Sequence record: MT446390.1
Length of the DNA stretch: 64,000 bases
Source: Escherichia phage TH12
Direction: 5' to 3' (one strand)
Shown here: piece by piece, positions 2,847 to 58,880 of the stretch
Layout: each line of letters opens with the position of its first letter
How positions within the stretch are numbered: position 1 is the first letter of the stretch
The notes under the pieces: generated by a model
What the model saw: only the letters and a program-made list of their open reading frames with translations
What the model was told of the DNA's origin: nothing
Databases searched by the model: none
Position numbers and translations under genes: made by a program

Positions 2847-2875
2847 TGTACAAACACCAAGGATGGTGATACTAT
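2847..2875 (+). promoter_or_regulatory. early promoter-like (GTACAA -35, TACTAT -10) with CACC/GGTG hairpin in spacer
   Basis: Motif match to neighbouring early promoters. Confidence 0.45.
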
Positions 2876-18219: not shown

Positions 18220-18693
18220 ATGATTATCAATGAAAACTCTTGGCACTTTAAAATTTATGCCGCGTTCAATAGTACATGGAATCGTCCGAAAACGTTGTGT
18301 GCTTATTTTTGGAAAACGTTAATCCCAGTATTGTCTGTTTCAATTATTGGATTTGCGATTTTAGCAGCAGTCGTAATCATTGGCCAGGAAATTTTAACTA
18401 GATTCTTTGTTTTTAGCAGTCTATGGACATTAGTTCCGGCCTCAATTGGCGTAGGCATTTTAATGGTAGCAGTCATGTCTCTTATTGCTGTCGGGTTGGT
18501 AATTGGCCCGTCTTGGTTGTTAGACAAATATAACGACAGAAAATATTATAAAGAAGTTGAGCTCATTGCACAAAACCAAGAACGAATTAAAAATGGACTT
18601 GAGCCTATTGAACGTAAGAAATCATTAATAGGTGAATACCTTAAAGCTCGTAAAGAAAAAGTCTGTCCTACTCTTGAATATAAGGCTAAATGA
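18220..18693 (+). CDS. membrane protein (157 aa)
   Basis: Two long hydrophobic helices. Confidence 0.5.
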   Translation: MIINENSWHFKIYAAFNSTWNRPKTLCAYFWKTLIPVLSVSIIGFAILAAVVIIGQEILTRFFVFSSLWTLVPASIGVGILMVAVMSLIAVGLVIGPSWLLDKYNDRKYYKEVELIAQNQERIKNGLEPIERKKSLIGEYLKARKEKVCPTLEYKAK

Positions 18694-19679
18694 TGAAAAC
18701 AATTATGAAAGGCTACTTTGGTAGTCACCTTTATGGAACGTCTACTCCTGAATCTGACGTCGATTTTAAAGAAATTTATGTCCCTCATGCTCGTGATATC
18801 TTGACCGGTAACGTTAAAGAACACATGAGCAAGAACACGAATAACACATCTTCTAAGAACACAAAAGACGACGTGGACCATGAGTTGTATAGTCTCAAAT
18901 ATTTCTTTAAACTAGCTGTGGATGGTGAAACCGTCGCATTAGATATGCTTCACACTCCACAAAGTCTAGTAGTTAAATCTGATTTGCCTGATGTATGGAA
19001 GTATATTCAAGATAACAGATCTCGTTTCTATACCACTAACATGAAATCTTATTTAGGGTATGTCCGTAAGCAAGCTTCTAAATATGGCGTCAAGGGTTCT
19101 CGTCTGGCTGTTCTCCGCCAAGCCCTTAAACGTTCTAATGAATGGGGACGATACTTTGATAATGGCGCAGTAATTCGTTTATCACATATGAAGAACGTTC
19201 TGCCTGTAGGTGAATTTGCTTCATGGGTTGAAACTGAAAACGAGAAAACAGGTAAGCAAACATTCTATAGTCTGTTGGACCGTAAATTCCAAGACACGTT
19301 AACCAATAAAGAGTTCAATGCCATCCTGGTTAAACTTGAAGAGAACTACGGTGAACGTGCTCGTAAGGCAGAAGCCAATGAAGGTATTGATTGGAAAGCA
19401 TTGAGTCATGCATGCCGTGGTGGACTTCAGCTCTTAGAAATTTACAAAACCGGCGACCTGGTTTACCCGCTTCAGGATGCTCCATTTATTCTCGATGTTA
19501 AGCTTGGTAAACATACGTTTAAAACCGTACAGGAATTCTTAGAAGATATCGTTGACCAAGTTGAACATGCGGCAGAACAAGCTGCTAAGAACGGTATGCA
19601 GCAAAAAGTAGATATGAGTTTCTGGGATGACTTCCTTGAGCAAGTCTACTTAGAAAACCACAATTCATACTATAAATGA
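18690..19679 (+). CDS. nucleotidyltransferase-fold protein (329 aa; pol-beta-like GS..SDVD motif)
   Basis: YFGSHLYGTSTPESDVDF resembles the NTase signature. Confidence 0.5.
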   Translation: MMKTIMKGYFGSHLYGTSTPESDVDFKEIYVPHARDILTGNVKEHMSKNTNNTSSKNTKDDVDHELYSLKYFFKLAVDGETVALDMLHTPQSLVVKSDLPDVWKYIQDNRSRFYTTNMKSYLGYVRKQASKYGVKGSRLAVLRQALKRSNEWGRYFDNGAVIRLSHMKNVLPVGEFASWVETENEKTGKQTFYSLLDRKFQDTLTNKEFNAILVKLEENYGERARKAEANEGIDWKALSHACRGGLQLLEIYKTGDLVYPLQDAPFILDVKLGKHTFKTVQEFLEDIVDQVEHAAEQAAKNGMQQKVDMSFWDDFLEQVYLENHNSYYK

Positions 19680-19755: not shown

Positions 19756-19794
19756 AGACCTATCAAAACGAAATGAGTAAATTTGGAGAATAAA

Positions 19795-20775
19795 ATGTTC
19801 AACGTTCAAATCAAAAAAGGTATCTATCGTAATAATGAAATCTCCGGTTCTTATGTTGCCACAAAGACATGGTTCCCAGCAAAGCTTAATCCTGAATGTT
19901 CCCACTTAGGTGACGGTAAAATTTTCGTTATGATTGATGGTTCTGAACGTGGAGTATGGGTCTTCAAATCAGACATCGTAATGGAAGGAGTTGAGACGAC
20001 ACCAGTTGCAGTTGTTGAAAGCACTGAAGATATGAAAACTCGTATCAACAAACGCTTTAAAGTAATGAACATGATGACGAATGGCATTATCGATGGCAAA
20101 ATTCGTTCACTCATTATTTCAGGTGCAGCTGGTATTGGTAAGACGTATTCTCTGGATAAAGCGCTTAATAATGCTAATGATAATGGTTTCATCAAATACA
20201 AAAGCATTAATGGTAAAATCTCTGGTATTGGCCTTTACGAACAACTTTGGCTCAACCGTGATGCAGACAGCGTTCTCTTAATCGACGATGTTGATGTATT
20301 CTCGGATATGGATATCTTGAACCTTCTTAAAGCAGCATTAGATACTGGTGATAAACGCAAAGTTTGCTGGAGCACTGCATCATCTTATCTTGATGATAAG
20401 GGTATCGATAAAGAATTTGAGTTTGAAGGTACTATTGTTTTCATTACAAACGTTGATATCGATAAAGAGTTAGAACGCGGTTCGAAACTTGCTCCGCACC
20501 TTCAAGCTTTAGTATCTCGTTCAGTGTATCTCGACCTTGGAGTACACTCTAATGAAGAGATTATGGTTCGAGTTGAAGATGTAATATTATCTACTGACAT
20601 GATGCAGAAACGTGGTCTGACGGATGCAGAAACGTATAAAGCATTGTCCTGGATGAAGGCTAACGTATCTCGTCTTCGCAATGTATCATTACGTACGGCT
20701 CTTTATGTAGCAGATTTTATTTCAACCGATAAAGATGGTTGGGAGGAAATCTCTGAAGTAACTTTACTGAAATAA
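19795..20775 (+). CDS. AAA+/P-loop ATPase (326 aa)
   Basis: Walker A GAAGIGKT, Walker B LLIDDVD. Confidence 0.6.
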   Translation: MFNVQIKKGIYRNNEISGSYVATKTWFPAKLNPECSHLGDGKIFVMIDGSERGVWVFKSDIVMEGVETTPVAVVESTEDMKTRINKRFKVMNMMTNGIIDGKIRSLIISGAAGIGKTYSLDKALNNANDNGFIKYKSINGKISGIGLYEQLWLNRDADSVLLIDDVDVFSDMDILNLLKAALDTGDKRKVCWSTASSYLDDKGIDKEFEFEGTIVFITNVDIDKELERGSKLAPHLQALVSRSVYLDLGVHSNEEIMVRVEDVILSTDMMQKRGLTDAETYKALSWMKANVSRLRNVSLRTALYVADFISTDKDGWEEISEVTLLK

Positions 20776-21253: not shown

Positions 21254-21781
21254 ATGAACGCTAAAGATATTTTCAACCTGGTAAATTATAACGACGGTAA
21301 ATTTAAATCTGAAGCACAGAGCAAGTTCTTTAATGACGTTGCTTATGGTAACGAGATTACCGTGGATGGAGGTCAGATTTTCAAATCTCGCTGGAATTGG
21401 ATTGCTATCATCGATTCAGTTGGAATTGTGGAAGTCTACAAAAACACTAACAAAAAACGTACATTATTCTGGTCTCGTGAAACTAACGAACAGTACAAAA
21501 AGGATAAAGCATCTCGTTTATCCAAAGTAACCCAGGAAGATATCGAGTTTATCAAGAAAGATATCGAGATGTACGAAAATTTAATAGCTGAAGACCAGGC
21601 AGTACTCGATAAGTTTGATGAAATTAAAGCTTCTCGTGAAATCCCTGACTTCATGAAAGAAACAGTAAACGAACGATACGCTCTCACTTCAGAACGTATT
21701 GCAAACTATACAAAACAGAAAGCAGAACGTATTAGTACTCTTCGGAAATTTGAAGAACGTTTAAAGACGGTTCACGCATAA
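21254..21781 (+). CDS. hypothetical protein (175 aa)
   Basis: ORF. Confidence 0.55.
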   Translation: MNAKDIFNLVNYNDGKFKSEAQSKFFNDVAYGNEITVDGGQIFKSRWNWIAIIDSVGIVEVYKNTNKKRTLFWSRETNEQYKKDKASRLSKVTQEDIEFIKKDIEMYENLIAEDQAVLDKFDEIKASREIPDFMKETVNERYALTSERIANYTKQKAERISTLRKFEERLKTVHA

Positions 21782-21843
21782 ACGCTTTACCCAAGGACGG
21801 GTTATAATGGTTTTGAGTTCCAATTCAATCTGAGGAAATAGTT

Positions 21844-22839
21844 ATGAGCATTATATCTGATGCGGTAAAACATGAAATTAACGGTTTATGTGCTTCACAG
21901 ATTAAAGTGTGGTTTAAAGACCATAACGATCGCAGAGCACTTAATTATGAGCAAATTGCTATCCAAGTTCATCAATTACTGACTAGTAAATTTGATTTTC
22001 ATATGCCATCTGAAATCTATACTAATCTGCCACGAGCACTTATTAAAGCGTGTAAAGGTTATGGAAAATCAATGGCTGATGGAATCTTCAGCGCGCTGAA
22101 TAAACTTAACGTTCTGTCGATGATTAACTCTAACAATATCCTGCGTAATCTAGGACGTACTGATTTGTTCGGACGTGAACAGTGTAAAATGCCTTTGAAA
22201 TGGATTGTTGCTCATCTTAACGAGAACCAAACACGTTTTATGGCCGTAACAGCACGTTTACAAATGGGCTTAGATCGTCAGATGAACTTTAAAACTCATC
22301 CATGTTATTCAGGTTCAACAGACTTTTATAAATGCGAGCTTCAAAAGGTCGGTGGCAAAACTGTCTTAGTAGTTCGTGTAACGTTTGAAGGACGACGTCA
22401 AGGATATTTTGACATAATCGGCTCTGGTCTTAAACATTGTGGATTTATCAACGAAGTTGATATCAAGCGAGACAGCGTTGGATACCGTATTGGGTATGTT
22501 TGTACTCTTAAAGAAGAGATTTCAGGACCAGCACCAGGACTAAAAGACGTTAGATATAAAGACGAGCTCGTTGAAGAAATAAAAGAAGTTGAATATGATA
22601 TCAACCAAGAAGATGCTCTTAAAGACCTTATTGACGAACTAAACCAAGACGTTATTCCGGTTCAGAAATTTGAATCAAAACATGCTGAGCAAATCAAATA
22701 CTTTGAAGCTTTGATTAACGAACTTAATGTAACTATTCAACAGACTGACGATGAAATCTCACGATTAGCAGGCTTAAATGGTAAAAATAAAACAGAACGA
22801 GCTAATCTTATTCAAGTAGTAAAACTTCTTAAGGAATGA
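21844..22839 (+). CDS. hypothetical protein (331 aa), C-terminal coiled coil
   Basis: ORF. Confidence 0.55.
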   Translation: MSIISDAVKHEINGLCASQIKVWFKDHNDRRALNYEQIAIQVHQLLTSKFDFHMPSEIYTNLPRALIKACKGYGKSMADGIFSALNKLNVLSMINSNNILRNLGRTDLFGREQCKMPLKWIVAHLNENQTRFMAVTARLQMGLDRQMNFKTHPCYSGSTDFYKCELQKVGGKTVLVVRVTFEGRRQGYFDIIGSGLKHCGFINEVDIKRDSVGYRIGYVCTLKEEISGPAPGLKDVRYKDELVEEIKEVEYDINQEDALKDLIDELNQDVIPVQKFESKHAEQIKYFEALINELNVTIQQTDDEISRLAGLNGKNKTERANLIQVVKLLKE

Positions 22840-22840
22840 T

Positions 22841-22869
22841 GTACAACCAAGGATGGTTGGAGTATAATA
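22841..22869 (+). promoter_or_regulatory. early promoter (TGTACAA ... TATAAT), duplicated at 23859
   Basis: Shared spacer CCAAGGATGGTTGGAG. Confidence 0.5.
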
Positions 22870-22894
22870 AATTTTTCAACATGAGGAATATAAA

Positions 22895-23854
22895 ATGGCT
22901 TTTATTACACGTAGAGAACTTATCAAAGAATTTACCTCGAACGCATATACTCCAGGACCTAATCCTATCCGTATGCCTGTAAAGACTCCTGAAGAGATTG
23001 AGGAAATCTGTTCGTATTATGGGATTACTTCTCGTATGTTTACTCAATTTGAATGTGTTACTAACACGCCCGTTAAAGAGTTCATTAAAAATGGTGAGTT
23101 CAGCCGTTTATTAGCCAAACAGAAACTTCGTAATTTTTGTATTGGCGGTTGTGGACAATATTTCGCTAAGCAGTTCCGGAATAACCTTAACAATCTGATG
23201 GCCATTGCTTCTCGTATTCGTCCTCAAGCAATTAACATGAAACATTTGAAATATACTTACGATAAGTTAGAAATCATGGTTATCAGTGAGAACGAGTTCA
23301 CTCTTACGTATAAACCTAAGAATGATAACGTTGCTCGTGTATTCCACCAAGCGCTAGAAGTGTTAGGCGATAATATCCATGAGATTAAAGCAATTTATTC
23401 TCGTGAGCTTAATATTATCGACCCTATCAAGAATAAGGGCCATATCGCTATCCAGGCTCGTGTATCTATTGGTAAAAAGGTTCCTGCGCCATGGTGGCAC
23501 AAAGACTCTGAATACTATCAAAATCTTAAAAAGGAAAATGCAACGTTCGAAGGCAATATCACAGCAACACCAGTCGGTAATGCAGAGGTTCTAAGCGCAT
23601 ATTCTCCGACACAACCCGGTATGTTTAAAGGTTTGCCAAATGTGTGCAAACTGTCGGCAGTAAAACTAAATGTTTCTAATGACCTTCTTCCGGCCGAAGA
23701 TTATCATTACAACCAAATCAAGGCTACTGTAGACCAACTGTCCGTTGAACTTGACAAAGCACAAGCTAAGCTTCGTGATGCTCAAAGTGTTGTAACGAAT
23801 CTCCAGTTGCAGTACTCTAAACTTTTTAATGCAATGAATGCATTAAAATCATAA
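22895..23854 (+). CDS. hypothetical protein (319 aa), C-terminal coiled coil
   Basis: ORF. Confidence 0.55.
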   Translation: MAFITRRELIKEFTSNAYTPGPNPIRMPVKTPEEIEEICSYYGITSRMFTQFECVTNTPVKEFIKNGEFSRLLAKQKLRNFCIGGCGQYFAKQFRNNLNNLMAIASRIRPQAINMKHLKYTYDKLEIMVISENEFTLTYKPKNDNVARVFHQALEVLGDNIHEIKAIYSRELNIIDPIKNKGHIAIQARVSIGKKVPAPWWHKDSEYYQNLKKENATFEGNITATPVGNAEVLSAYSPTQPGMFKGLPNVCKLSAVKLNVSNDLLPAEDYHYNQIKATVDQLSVELDKAQAKLRDAQSVVTNLQLQYSKLFNAMNALKS

Positions 23855-23858
23855 AACG

Positions 23859-23889
23859 GTTTACAACCAAGGATGGTTGGAGTATAATG
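23859..23889 (+). promoter_or_regulatory. early promoter (GTTTAC ... TATAAT), duplicate of 22841
   Basis: Shared spacer. Confidence 0.5.
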
Positions 23890-23916
23890 AATCTATCTTA
23901 ACGAGAGGAAAATATT

Positions 23917-24867
23917 ATGACACGTTCACATTACATTGAATACTTTGCCGGTCTTATCGCTAACGTTCATGCCCAGCGCGCTGTTGGTGCACTAGGATTT
24001 GATGTTCCACACCGAGATGTAGTAAGTGGTATTCTTCGCGATTTTGGTACATACACAGGTCAAGAAAATCATATCTGTAAAGATACTCAGAATGCGTATT
24101 CTCATTCATTAGGGACACTGCTTCAATGGTTCAAACGTTCTCGTTTATTATCTTCTACTGTAGCTCGCGATAACATTAAAAACTTTATGAAACCGAGCTT
24201 TATTAAATCTGTGACATCTAAAACCGATTTGGTTGAATTCACTATTGTTAATGATGTTAAAAAGACTCATTTGGCTGATTGGTTATCTACCATTCCTGAA
24301 ACTAAATTCGCTGATAAATTTGCTTGTGAATTCAATAACCAAGTGAATATGCTTTTTAAACATTCTCGTAAATTATTCACGGGCGGTGATGGTCGTACAA
24401 ATAAAGTTCATGTTAAAGATTGGGTTACTGCAGTATTCAAACCGACCGGTAATGGTAACGCATCATTATCAATTGATATCCAGGTTCCTTATTACTACTC
24501 ACGTAATCTCGGTACCATGAAAGCTGAAGAAATTAATAAGCATAACAAAACCGTTCGTTCATTGTCTTATAAACTTATTACATTGTTAGAGACTATGGAT
24601 GTTGTTGAAACGTTCGACGAATCCGAAGATAACGGTTCAATGTTATACAGTTCTCGCACCCGAATTAAGCTGAAGAACCCTAACGAGTATAAACTTAAGA
24701 CTATTAAAGAACCTAAAGTAGAAAAAGTTGACAACTTGAGCGAAGAACGTGAATATCTCAAATCTCGTCTGAAAGAAGTCGAAGCCCAGATTAAAGAACA
24801 GACTAAATCATTAAAAGCTCTGAATGCAAAAGCTGATGGTTTACGAAATGCTATTGAGGTTTTATAA
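23917..24867 (+). CDS. hypothetical protein (316 aa), C-terminal coiled coil
   Basis: ORF. Confidence 0.55.
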   Translation: MTRSHYIEYFAGLIANVHAQRAVGALGFDVPHRDVVSGILRDFGTYTGQENHICKDTQNAYSHSLGTLLQWFKRSRLLSSTVARDNIKNFMKPSFIKSVTSKTDLVEFTIVNDVKKTHLADWLSTIPETKFADKFACEFNNQVNMLFKHSRKLFTGGDGRTNKVHVKDWVTAVFKPTGNGNASLSIDIQVPYYYSRNLGTMKAEEINKHNKTVRSLSYKLITLLETMDVVETFDESEDNGSMLYSSRTRIKLKNPNEYKLKTIKEPKVEKVDNLSEEREYLKSRLKEVEAQIKEQTKSLKALNAKADGLRNAIEVL

Positions 24868-25172
24868 TGAAACTACGTCTTTTAGAGGATATTGATATGA
24901 GCACTAATCATGGCTTGGTTAAGTTTATTGACGATAGTTCAAAGATTGAATTTGTTCAGCGAGATAAAATCCACGGTGAAGAAGAGTTCGTTCCTCCGGC
25001 ATGGAACGAAATCATGAAAATGGTTGAACGACGTGAAAATGCTGCCAAATCGGCGGCAAAACATCCATGCCCGGAATGTGGAACTATCCAAGTCCAACTG
25101 GTTAACTGGACCACTGATAACTTGAAATTGAAATGCCGTAAATGCTTCCACAAATTTGAGAGAATATTATAA
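24867..25172 (+). CDS. zinc-ribbon protein (101 aa; CPECG ... CRKC)
   Basis: Two Cys pairs. Confidence 0.5.
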   Translation: MKLRLLEDIDMSTNHGLVKFIDDSSKIEFVQRDKIHGEEEFVPPAWNEIMKMVERRENAAKSAAKHPCPECGTIQVQLVNWTTDNLKLKCRKCFHKFERIL

Positions 25173-25585
25173 TGAGATATAGCCTTCGTTGTTTTATCGC
25201 AGCTTTAGTTTTTGCCGTTATTCCATTCATTTGGAACAGTCAGAATACTTACATGGAAACTAAAGTAATTCCTGTGGAGGTAGTGGAATTAATCTCAGGC
25301 CAATCTACAGGAAAATATTCTAAATTAGAATTTATTGCAGTCTATAAAGATGAGCAAGGACGAGTTTTTGACAGGCGTGTATCGCCATCGTTTTATACGC
25401 TTCTGAATAAAGGTGATACGATAGCTATAGAAATTCGTGAGATGGATATCAAACAAACTACTAAAGATAACTTGATTTGGTTCTTTGGTACAGTGTTGTT
25501 GGTTTCTATTTGTATCACAGGTTTTATTACATGTATTGTATTTGGCATTGCATATTTAATCGATGAAAGGAAAAATAATGTTTAA
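25172..25585 (+). CDS. membrane protein (137 aa)
   Basis: N- and C-terminal hydrophobic helices. Confidence 0.5.
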   Translation: MRYSLRCFIAALVFAVIPFIWNSQNTYMETKVIPVEVVELISGQSTGKYSKLEFIAVYKDEQGRVFDRRVSPSFYTLLNKGDTIAIEIREMDIKQTTKDNLIWFFGTVLLVSICITGFITCIVFGIAYLIDERKNNV

Positions 25586-57818: not shown

Positions 57819-57857
57819 TAAGATGGCCTTATTAATTTAAGGCCTCTGGAGAATACT

Positions 57858-58880
57858 ATGGCTGAATGGATAGATAATGAATTTGCTTATCGTGCGTTTT
57901 CTCACCTCCCTCGTTTTAGACAAATCAATAATTCAAGCACATTTAAATTAACATTTCGTTGTCCAGTTTGTGGCGACTCTCAGACAGATGCAATGAAAGC
58001 CCGCGGATGGTATTATGGCGGTACTCCAGGTAATGTGCATTGCTATAACTGTCAATATCATAATACAATTTCTGGATACTTAAAAGAGTACGATGAAGAG
58101 CTTTATCGCGAGTATCTAATGGAAGTTCGTAAAGAAAAAGCTAGAATGGAACCAAAGATTGAAAAGGTTCCTGAAGCTAAGCCGGAGCCAGAGAAAAAGA
58201 CTATAAATTCTTTGCCGTCTTGTTCTCGTCTGGACAAGTTGCCTGAAGAGCATCCTATTGTGAAATATGTTAAGTCTCGGTGTATTCCTAAAGAATCATG
58301 GAACAGATTATGGTTCACATTAGAATGGCCCAAATTGGTCAACAAGATTCAACCTGGTACGTATAAGAAAGAGATTCCTGAACCGCGTTTAGTGATTCCT
58401 ATTTTTAATAAAGATGGGAAGGCCGAGTCATTCCAAGGACGTGCACTTCGTAAAGATGCTCCTCAGAAATATATCACTATTAAAGCGTTTGAGTCTGCAA
58501 CAAAAATTTATGGTGTTGAACGTGTTAAGGAAGGAGACGTCTGGGTAATGGAAGGTCCTATTGATAGTTTATTCATACCCAATGCAATCGCTATTACAGG
58601 CGGCTCAATAGATTTAGATGTGGTACCATTTAAAGAACGTCGGGTATGGGTAATGGATAATGAACCTAGGCATCCAGATACTATAGCTCGTATGAAGCGA
58701 TTAGTTGATGCAGGCGAACGTGTCATGTTCTGGGACCGAGCTCCATGGAGATCAAAGGATGTGAATGATATGGTAATGAAAGAAAATGCAACACCACAAG
58801 AAATTTTAGAATATATGAAACAGAATATTTCAAGTGGGTTGCATGCTAAAATGAGATTATCTCGTTATTCGAAGATTTAA
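57858..58880 (+). CDS. 61: DNA primase gp61
   Basis: WIDNEFAYRAFSHLPRF ... zinc ribbon CPVCGDS / CYNC; matches T4 gp61. Confidence 0.95.
   Translation: MAEWIDNEFAYRAFSHLPRFRQINNSSTFKLTFRCPVCGDSQTDAMKARGWYYGGTPGNVHCYNCQYHNTISGYLKEYDEELYREYLMEVRKEKARMEPKIEKVPEAKPEPEKKTINSLPSCSRLDKLPEEHPIVKYVKSRCIPKESWNRLWFTLEWPKLVNKIQPGTYKKEIPEPRLVIPIFNKDGKAESFQGRALRKDAPQKYITIKAFESATKIYGVERVKEGDVWVMEGPIDSLFIPNAIAITGGSIDLDVVPFKERRVWVMDNEPRHPDTIARMKRLVDAGERVMFWDRAPWRSKDVNDMVMKENATPQEILEYMKQNISSGLHAKMRLSRYSKI

Follow-up and report, generated by a model that had tools for sequence, protein, structure and literature searches.

Three consecutive genes of a T-even-like phage, here called A, B and C, encode proteins of 331, 319 and 316 aa, and closely similar promoter sequences precede the last two. 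A sequence-only reading, which gave these near-identical lengths correctly, interpreted the locus as the tandem duplication and divergence of a gene together with its regulatory cassette. This raises the question of whether the proteins are related at all, whether the cassettes share their history, and what such an array might do. We analyzed the region within a 64,000-nucleotide stretch of DNA (the window). Our best overall explanation, which we regard as probable, combines paralogy of the three proteins, early promoters of the promoter-early stem-loop (PeSL) type, use of these cassettes as recombination sites and an anti-defense role.

Mosigvirus genomes have 98% DNA identity to the window and a T4-like gene order. 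The sequence places the source of the window among the T4-like Mosigvirus and the region in the nrdC-mobD hyperplastic segment, with predicted transcription on the + strand. Genes A, B and C are real open reading frames, all on the + strand, each with a GAGGA Shine-Dalgarno (SD) sequence 7-8 nt 5´ of its ATG. BLASTP comparison with T4 proteins identified them as the counterparts of nrdC.6 (E 9e-19, 29% identity), nrdC.5 (E 4e-12 over 312 aa, 24-27% identity) and nrdC.3 (E 3e-118, 56% identity), respectively; T4 nrdC.6 and nrdC.3 are uncharacterized. The family of gene A comprises 741 phage records, every one of them T-even-like. Gene B matches DUF7235 (PF23882) over its full length (residues 15-318, E 1e-119, 400 bits with the cut-off at 30), and gene C is also a paralog of T4 nrdC.4. 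The order nrdC.6-nrdC.5-(nrdC.4)-nrdC.3 is common to this locus and T4, with nrdC.4 absent from the window and the nrdC.7 homolog placed elsewhere (25172-25585). The array ends after gene C, where the ATG of an nrdC.2-like gene overlaps the stop codon (TAATG) and no cassette is found. Many GenBank records label A, B and C as thioredoxins; we rejected this label, for which there was no thioredoxin or glutaredoxin match in Pfam or NCBIfam and which derives from the locus name nrdC.x. Much of the biology of the locus (early genes, promoter cassettes, gain and loss of the middle gene) is largely known already, and apart from the paralogy, the anti-defense role and the hybrid junctions described below, this is ordinary T4-type early-gene organization.

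Table 1. Features of the A/B/C locus, in window coordinates.
Feature	Position	Strand	Details
Cassette upstream of gene A	21784-21808	+	GCTTTA 21784-21789; imperfect hairpin ACCCA-AGGA-CGGGT 21789-21802; TATAAT 21803-21808
Gene A	21844-22839	+	331 aa; T4 nrdC.6 homolog (PF26899, phrog_2257)
Gene A, block common to B/C/D families	22060-22278	+	residues 73-145; hhalign
Gene A, C-terminal helical segment	22672-22836	+	~aa 277-331; GLNGKNK break; end ...RANLIQVVKLLKE
Cassette 1 (PeSL type)	22835-22877	+	-35 TGTACA 22840-22845; -10 TATAAT 22863-22868
Cassette 1 stem-loop	22844-22859		CAACCA-AGGA-TGGTTG; SD GAGGA 22883-22887
Gene B	22895-23854	+	319 aa; DUF7235 member, distant T4 nrdC.5 homolog
Gene B, block aligned with nrdC.3/nrdC.4	23072-23428	+	residues 60-178; hhalign
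Gene B, C-terminal coiled coil	23693-23851	+	aa 267-319; end ...KLFNAMNALKS
Cassette 2 (PeSL type)	23855-23897	+	-35 TTTACA 23860-23865; -10 TATAAT 23883-23888
Cassette 2 stem-loop	23864-23879		CAACCA-AGGA-TGGTTG; SD GAGGA 23905-23909
Gene C	23917-24867	+	316 aa; T4 nrdC.3 homolog (PF26897, phrog_1435)
Gene C, C-terminal coiled coil	24715-24864	+	aa 267-316; end ...GLRNAIEVL
nrdC.2-like zinc-ribbon gene	24867-25172	+	101 aa; 51% identity to T4 nrdC.2

All three proteins had been described as ending in heptad-rich segments, which holds for B and C and is marginal for A. The C-terminal heptad scores of B (1.18) and C (1.21) exceeded the 95th percentile of shuffled sequences (0.93 and 0.99). In the AF2 models, residues 267-318 of B form one long helix and helix 275-315 is the best-scoring part of C, and the C-terminal coil of B matches the C-terminus of phrog_26858. 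For A, the score was 0.97 against a threshold of 0.99, the segment is interrupted by GLNGKNK and its matches to coiled-coil Pfam families were weak only. This segment is conserved, with 60% identity to slur14 nrdC.6 versus 24-28% in the rest of the protein; the T4 reference copy of nrdC.6, unlike gene A, is frameshifted ahead of the coil, which is lost. A and B share 27-31% identity with their T4-type orthologs, compared with 76-79% for the flanking nrdC.10 and nrdC.11, while identity rises to 44-60% over the last 55 aa, indicating that the bodies diverge fast and the C-terminal coils are kept.

What function might such proteins have? T4 NrdC.5 counteracts the SIR2 defense Dsr1, and plasmid expression of nrdC.5 alone is enough to rescue infection of cells carrying Dsr1 (Srikant et al. 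2022, PMC9391042). Of the neighboring genes, gp49.2 inhibits OLD (PMC13096335) and nrdC.1 inhibits Septu (bioRxiv 2025.11.20.689424). Gene B occupies the same position as T4 nrdC.5, flanked by the homologs of nrdC.6 and of nrdC.3/.4, and has an early-gene context and a C-terminal coiled coil in common with it. By analogy, gene B may neutralize a Dsr1-like SIR2 defense as T4 nrdC.5 does, though the transfer is weak given the low identity (24-27%) to the tested T4 protein, and the target specificity may differ. More generally, A, B and C would be anti-defense or host-takeover factors in which the fast-evolving body recognizes a host target and oligomerization occurs through the conserved coiled coil, with A and C acting on targets other than that of B.

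Alternatively, the three proteins might have no part in anti-defense, their coiled coils instead joining them in a hetero-oligomeric early complex that does something else, for instance host takeover or remodeling of the nucleoid or membrane. The adjacency of three genes, each with a conserved C-terminal helix and a similar end motif, would fit such a complex, as would the facts that all are early genes and that nrdC.3, nrdC.4 and nrdC.6 are without a tested function. We nevertheless think this unlikely: an obligate complex is hard to reconcile with the free variation in gene content (21 relatives lack B, there are four members in T4, and only remnants are left in Pinarejo and ACG-C40), with the sufficiency of plasmid-expressed T4 nrdC.5 against Dsr1 or with the loss of the nrdC.6 coil in the T4 reference.

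We then asked whether A, B and C are related to one another. Pairwise BLASTP detected no similarity among them (E 0.23-4), PHROGs and Pfam place them in separate families, and a search of NCBIfam with the three proteins gave no match. Profile-profile comparison by hhalign, with z calculated against column shuffles, did find similarity, using the nrdC.4 family (D) as a hub. C matched D with a probability of 97% (E 5e-11), and B matched nrdC.3 and nrdC.4 combined over 138 columns (E 9e-5, probability 59.5%, z 11.0). A matched D at E 0.01 (z 4.9) and the merged B/C/D profile with a score of 35.5 (E 3.9e-4, z 10.4 from 60 column shuffles); this link of A to the superfamily consists of one block of ~73 columns with an hhalign probability of 35%. 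In the block shared by B, nrdC.3 and nrdC.4, the motif is KxFxKxGxxsRxxAxxKLrNF ... FxxxFRnNLxxLxxiAsRi, followed in B by a helix ending IKAIYS that is the counterpart of MDVVE; the block shared by A with the other families reads aLnKxxxLSxiNsxxILrN ... NQxRxxAxxARLxxGLDrQM. An unguided MAFFT alignment of the superfamily, in which B and C are 13% identical, brought together the co-linear motifs M(K)TRxxYIxxF, FKxSRLLSxxxAxxxIxNF and FRxNxxxLxxxAxRLxxGDxR and, in the same order, MDVVE, PVxK(F/W)xxHAxxI and the C-terminal +LxxAhxxLK. The proposal of three tandem-duplicated proteins thus survives at the level of profiles only, and outside the coiled coil, with no support from pairwise similarity.

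Structure prediction added little. The AF2 models of B (from the superfamily alignment, pLDDT 48.8) and C (from its own-family alignment, pLDDT 53.9, pTM 0.33) have secondary-structure elements in the same order, at a confidence too low for 3D comparison. Foldseek searches of BFVD with these models returned their own families, the RB69 nrdC.5 model being the sole BFVD match of B; weak full-length matches to 318-332 aa proteins of other T4-like phages (e.g. Melville, E 1.6e-3) were set aside as non-evidence. The four-family profile matched the heptad repeats of GCN4, Lpp and spike in its C-terminal part only, and a PDB profile search gave generic coiled-coil matches only. In an exhaustive HMM search of 1.84 billion proteins, the C-family profile found only five, too few for a deeper alignment, and a search for related loci that started from one protein yielded just 2, both near-identical. 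Two further candidates were discarded: a match of the B/C/D profile to the ORF at 57822-58877, which is a primase matched via a low-complexity linker, and P0056, an apparent nrdC.5-nrdC.3 link (E <1e-30) that was excluded once recognized as a deletion chimera.

Could the profile matches simply reflect helical composition, with A, B and C being unrelated ORFans juxtaposed by cassette shuffling and similar in length and helices by coincidence or convergence? The absence of BLASTP similarity, the separate families, the hhalign probabilities of just 35-60% and the gain and loss of genes at cassettes in this region are all compatible with such an origin. Yet no column-shuffled or reversed profile reached the observed scores (0/60, z 10-11), and the same-sized neighboring families nrdC.10 and nrdC.11 were at the null (z ~0). 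Moreover, scores went up upon merging families, the matches are co-linear and lie away from the coiled coil, the order in which five or six short motifs align is identical, and nrdC.3 and nrdC.4, clear paralogs of each other, bridge to B. Unrelated origins are therefore improbable, somewhat more so than the hetero-oligomeric complex. The co-linear motifs outside the coiled coil instead point to A, B and C being ancient paralogs, at 13-20% identity, for which a tandem origin is plausible. On these comparisons, nrdC.3-.6 constitute one small superfamily limited to T-even phages, with a predicted alpha/beta body spanning the N-terminal and central parts and, at the C-terminus, a conserved helix of ~50 aa.

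The cassettes have a different history. As the sequence-only reading had noted, genes B and C are preceded by nearly the same promoter and leader: an exact 25-mer, CAACCAAGGATGGTTGGAGTATAAT, starts at 22844 and 23864, occurs exactly twice in the window and had no match in 100 shuffles, and the repeat reaches 43 nt at 86% identity (37/43). Both cassettes are intergenic, following the stop codons of A (22837-22839) and B (23852-23854) and followed by the SD sequence and ATG. With TTTACA-17-TATAAT (11/12 consensus positions) in cassette 2 and TGTACA-17-TATAAT (10/12) in cassette 1, they outscore every other sigma-70-like match in the surrounding 10 kb (18-28 kb) and fit the PST/T4 early promoter consensus TTTACW-N17-TAYWAT (PMC4122927). 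These features identify a predicted sigma-70-type T4 early promoter for each of B and C, from which host RNA polymerase would transcribe both genes right after infection. At least 14 T4 early promoters of the form T(T/G)TACA-N17-TATAAT are present in the window. Among the 91 pairs of 14 such promoters, cassettes 1 and 2 are the most similar (37/43 versus 24.5 on average, sd 4.0). Scores of 34-35/43 are attained by other pairs, making this pair the top of a repeated family and not a unique duplication.

We also detected a third cassette, upstream of gene A, that the earlier reading had missed. Its core, CCAAGGACGG, has the same CCAAGGAYGG as both downstream cassettes, with a spacer 5 nt shorter, and it is orthologous to the region upstream of T4 nrdC.7, CCGCTTTATACCAAGGATGGTATAAT. 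The MotA-box consensus is the basis for assigning the promoter class of gene A. Its spacing is in keeping with a middle promoter of the MotA type and not with a sigma-70 early promoter, so that transcription of gene A would start from a MotA-type version of the cassette.

In 21 related phage records gene B is missing and A is joined directly to C. The three junctions that were read (ESCO47, p000v and JM10) are hybrid cassettes with the crossover within the shared core, and moha has the reciprocal junction. The two cassettes around B are thus direct repeats that act as homologous-recombination sites for the gain and loss of B. A recent tandem duplication of gene plus promoter, with the matching cassettes as its remnant, could account for the 25/25 core and for the highest similarity of any promoter pair in the window, but we consider it the least probable of the alternatives, since B and C are too divergent (13%), their DNA similarity stops at the cassettes with none in the coding regions, the gene order is shared with T4, whose counterpart cassettes differ from one another (the genes are thus older than the cassette identity), the flanks of the cassettes belong to different genes and the hybrid junctions reveal ongoing recombination. 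The identity is better accounted for by exchange at a shared element, or by Campbell-type insertion there. Such a duplication would be supported by cassette cores that track the gene tree and not the phage lineage, and the present data point the other way. Intergenic DNA could not have stayed 25/25 while the proteins fell to ~15% identity, and the cassettes belong to the family of at least 14 promoters, match PeSL and serve as recombination sites. Ancient paralogy of the genes was therefore kept, and the joint duplication of gene and cassette was not supported.

Cassettes 1 and 2 each have a 6-bp stem with an AGGA loop in the spacer between the -35 and -10 elements. Across 15 cassettes, the stem covariation score was 0.48 versus 0.13 for shuffled sequences (0/500 shuffles reached it), and pairing was found in 85% of cells versus 65% when shuffled and 25-46% with slid partners. 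Extended stems were seen in promoter context only, with the chance control, a scan of viral contigs for CCAAGGATGG..TATAAT, returning mostly unrelated contigs. These alignments support a predicted spacer stem of 5-7 bp with an AGGA loop and outer pairs covarying across phages, making promoter and stem-loop a PeSL cassette. At -6.9 kcal/mol (z about -2) the RNA hairpin is weak, and there is no T-run, which makes terminator activity doubtful; in read-through RNA it might be a 3´ stabilizer or an attenuator. PeSLs (Arbiol et al. 2010, PMC2839356; Comeau et al. 2014, PMC4122927) likewise combine an intergenic sigma-70-like early promoter and a stem-loop, followed by SD and ATG, and one of their five stem-loop subclasses has the stem-loop between -35 and -10 (PMC2839356). 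They too lie in a hyperplastic region, as direct repeats around a dispensable gene with indel crossovers inside the element. The stems differ: in the window they have a CCA-AGGA-TGG core with covarying outer pairs, whereas those of RB49/phi1 are G-rich/C-rich and that of PST/T4 is reported as AGNA...TCNT, and the stem in the window is weak and without a T-run.

A comparable arrangement is found in the internal-protein (IP) loci of T-even phages, described, as cited in PMC2839356 and PMC4122927, as fast-diverging arrays of dispensable genes (Repoila et al. 1994). As far as these citing accounts go, host-range or anti-defense genes are likewise shuffled there between related phages at conserved regulatory sequences, with the difference that IPs are small, packaged and carry a capsid-targeting signal, whereas the proteins of this locus are ~320 aa long, contain coiled coils and lack such a signal. 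A bolder and quite tentative extension is that nrdC.3/.4/.5/.6 form a diversifying array of anti-defense inhibitors, built on one common scaffold with a variable target-binding body on a conserved coiled-coil stalk, each paralog directed against a different immune system (Dsr1 for nrdC.5) and the AGGA-loop cassettes being integron-style exchange sites at which members are swapped, deleted and re-inserted.

The clean hybrid junctions add a natural and well-resolved case of genes being gained and lost through cassettes. Should both the paralogy and the anti-defense role be correct, four "hypothetical" T4 families would be one scaffold, and the known Dsr1 target of one member would be a rational start for finding the targets of the others. 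This would also explain differences in host range between therapeutic T-even phages that differ only in the members they carry.

Three consecutive ORFs of near-equal length, A, B and C, were present as the sequence-only reading had described, each with a GAGGA Shine-Dalgarno sequence 7-8 nt before the ATG. The region from 21600 to 25100 matched 515 phage records, and the top matches listed (Shf125875, CCU7 and PhAPEC2, 96.9-98.3% identity) are T4-like phages of the Mosigvirus (RB69-like) group. The equivalent in the annotated T4 genome is the nrdC-mobD hyperplastic segment, and nrdC, gp49 and nrdD lie farther downstream in the window. In T4 the nrdC.5-nrdC.3 interval holds nrdC.4, a fourth gene of this size, which is absent from the window phage. 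PHROGs and precomputed Pfam assignments place A, B and C in three distinct uncharacterised families, with DUF7235 covering the full length of B (E 1e-119). Many GenBank records (e.g. those for loci L005 and L012) apply the name "thioredoxin" almost throughout the nrdC.x block, to A, B and C among others; no thioredoxin domain was found in these three, and the name was propagated from the locus label. We also noted that the nrdC.7 homolog sits 3´ of the nrdC.2-like gene, whereas T4 nrdC.7 is upstream of nrdC.6, a gene-order rearrangement inside the hyperplastic region. The gene C stop overlaps the nrdC.2-like start (TAATG, 24865-24869), as for nrdC.3 and nrdC.2 in T4, and this arrangement suggests translational coupling.

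Features of the A-B-C locus and associated promoters
Feature	Coordinates	Strand	Description	T4 counterpart
Third early promoter with AGGA-loop hairpin	2847-2875	+	TGTACA...TACTAT	
nrdC.11	18690-19679		nucleotidyltransferase	
nrdC.10	19783-20775		ATPase	
nrdC.8	21254-21781			
Cassette before gene A	21784-21808		GCTTTA-N13-TATAAT	
Gene A	21844-22839	+	331 aa	nrdC.6, 29% identity, E 9e-19 (BLASTP)
A-B cassette	22835-22877	+	promoter and stem-loop	
Gene B	22895-23854	+	319 aa	nrdC.5, 26% identity, E 4e-12 (BLASTP)
B-C cassette	23855-23897	+	promoter and stem-loop	
Gene C	23917-24867	+	316 aa	nrdC.3, 56% identity, E 3e-118 (BLASTP)
nrdC.2-like gene	24867-25172		zinc-ribbon	
nrdC.7 homolog	25172-25585		predicted membrane protein	nrdC.7, 42% identity

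The sequence-only reading had proposed tandem duplication of a gene together with its regulatory cassette. Pairwise BLASTP revealed no similarity among A, B and C (best E 0.23). ORFs of 200-420 aa from the locus in eleven further phages, together with database homologs, were clustered into families. P0056, which seemed to bridge two families, is a chimera produced by deletion between nrdC.5 and nrdC.3 and was taken out, leaving A/nrdC.6, B/nrdC.5, C/nrdC.3 and D/nrdC.4. Profiles were compared with hhalign; the z values refer to 60 profiles with shuffled columns, all of which scored below the real match. C matched D at 97% probability (E 5e-11), while B matched D (40%, E 2.9e-4, z 10.5) and merged C+D (60%, E 9e-5, z 11.0). 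The matches for A to D (4%, E 0.01, z 4.9) and to B (2%, E 0.025, z 3.9) rose to 35% (E 3.9e-4, z 10.4) against merged B+C+D. Reversed profiles and the same-length neighbours nrdC.10 and nrdC.11 stayed at null level (z -0.6 to 0.5). The matches were co-linear and fell beyond the coiled coil. MAFFT, run unguided on 26 members, brought into register M(K)TRxxYIxxF at the N-terminus (B, C and D), FKxSRLLSxxxAxxxIxNF, FxxxFRxNxxxLxxxAxRLxxGDxRxx, MDVVE, PVxK(F/W)xxHAxxI where the last helix begins (A and B), and a shared C-terminal end, +LxxAhxxLK-stop; the order of secondary-structure elements in two AF2 models is consistent with this alignment. Thus, B is a true remote paralog of C, and A very probably belongs with them; the genes are ancient tandem paralogs, their similarity beyond the coil being visible at the profile level. 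The superfamily has a narrow distribution: among 1.84 billion representative proteins, searched exhaustively with a profile, five matched, the tblastn matches listed for each member are T-even-like phages of enterobacteria, and the 64-kb window held no further member.

A heptad-rich C-terminal segment had been claimed for each protein. This held for B (267-319) and C (267-316), which passed a simple heptad test against shuffles and form one long helix each in AF2 models; A scored marginally, with a glycine-rich break. The superfamily profile matched GCN4, Lpp and viral heptad repeats in this segment only. Compared with T4-type orthologs, the last 55 residues were 60% identical in A (rest 24-28%) and 44% in B (rest 23-25%), indicating a fast-evolving body and a constrained stalk; whole-protein identity was 27-31%, versus 76-79% for the flanking nrdC.10 and nrdC.11. 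Separately, the T4 reference nrdC.6 (NC_000866, 52066-52893) carries a 1-nt deletion (gagctg-at versus gagctgAat in slur14) that leaves its 36 conserved terminal residues, which make up the C-terminal coil, in the wrong frame. Another frame still encodes the intact coil, ending 9 nt before the nrdC.5 ATG, and the deletion reflects either a frameshift in the lab strain or an error of sequencing.

The near-identity of the sequences preceding B and C was confirmed, with an exact 25-mer at 22844 and 23864 (chance expectation none) within a 43-nt repeat of 86% identity. Both look like T4-type early promoters (TGTACA-N17-TATAAT and TTTACA-N17-TATAAT), of which the window has at least 14, all on the + strand (the 14 sites span 2476 to 62860). 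The consensus extends past the hexamers (A-rich upstream tract, G(T/G)TTAC(A/T), and post -10 AGACCTATCAACTAC..GGAG..ATG), so the early promoters make up a family of dispersed repeats, each 40-70 nt long. The two cassettes are the closest of 91 promoter pairs (37/43 versus a mean of 24.5), other pairs reaching 34-35/43.

The spacer of both cassettes holds the inverted repeat CAACCA-AGGA-TGGTTG. The CCA-AGGA-TGG core recurs upstream of gene A (stem ACCCA/CGGGT), and in T4 the core occurs upstream of nrdC.7 (TACCA/TGGTA), nrdC.4 (CCACA/TGTGG) and nrdC.3 (AGCCA/TGGCT). A third early promoter, at 2847, carries the core in its spacer too, with another stem (CACCA/TGGTG). The cassette before gene A, orthologous to the region upstream of T4 nrdC.7, has a spacer 5 nt shorter with the core unchanged and looks like a MotA-dependent middle promoter. 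In a viral-contig scan for the core plus TATAAT, the stem was longer by 3-4 pairs in 10 of 20 matches with a -35 box, while extension was near chance level in the 100 without. Across 15 distinct cassettes, 85% of cells were paired, versus 65% after shuffling and 25-46% when the partners were slid; double changes affected 5/7 stem pairs, and the covariation score (0.48 versus 0.13) was equalled in 0/500 shuffles. Occasional G-U pairs hint at a role for the structure in + strand RNA. At -6.9 kcal/mol (z about -2) the hairpin is of modest strength, and it has no T-run. GGAG, the target of the RegB endoribonuclease, lies directly 3´ of the stem and touches the -10 box (GGAGTATAAT, 22859-22868 and 23879-23888), and is placed likewise in cassettes of several other phages; speculatively, RegB might cut read-through transcripts just past the hairpin. 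Early promoter, stem-loop, Shine-Dalgarno and ATG in a hyperplastic region constitute the promoter-early stem-loop (PeSL) element (Arbiol et al., 2010, PMC2839356; Comeau et al., 2014, PMC4122927).

The cassette repeat could be a remnant of the ancient gene duplication, but the corresponding T4 cassettes are unlike each other and junctions in other phages counter this reading. A is joined straight to C in 21 phage records; in ESCO47, p000v and JM10 the junction combines the A-B left flank with the B-C right flank, the crossover falling within the shared 27-nt core. The reciprocal product lies upstream of B in moha (L012 5699-6000), where ~25 nt from the 3´ end of B are followed by the core and then the B leader, a pattern characteristic of a B circle or tandem B duplication. 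Given these hybrid and reciprocal junctions, the near-identity of the cassettes is best accounted for if exchange, or Campbell-type insertion, took place at a functional element that they share. The promoter repeat is therefore a PeSL cassette that recombination maintains and homogenises, and not a relic of duplication, so the proposed joint duplication of gene and cassette is half correct. Moha also has a 66-aa hydrophobic ORF between A and B, ahead of the junction. Natural deletion products inside the array are P0056 (an in-frame fusion at short FN..VN homology), ACG-C40 (L009 6805-7213; a 71-aa nrdC.5 stub and nrdC.3 C-terminal remnant) and Pinarejo (L007 6001-6135; nrdC.6 reduced to its last 45 codons).

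Neither a domain nor a solved structure nor a confident match to a fold was found for A, B or C. The same T-even region encodes pin, a Lon inhibitor, gp49.2, an OLD inhibitor (PMC13096335), and nrdC.1, a Septu inhibitor (bioRxiv 2025.11.20.689424). With T4 nrdC.5 expressed alone, a deletion mutant plates again on cells that carry Dsr1, a defence of the SIR2 type (PMC9391042); gene B is 24-27% identical to this protein and may still target Dsr1. Taken with early expression, the dispensability and presence/absence polymorphism of the genes and the fast divergence of the body, these observations argue indirectly that the A, B and C proteins most likely act in counter-defence, where the coiled coil may serve as an oligomerisation stalk. 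Most of these findings are known biology of T4-type hyperplastic regions; modestly new are the unification of nrdC.3 to nrdC.6 at the profile level, the PeSL stem variant with an AGGA loop and covarying pairs, and the clean reciprocal junctions.
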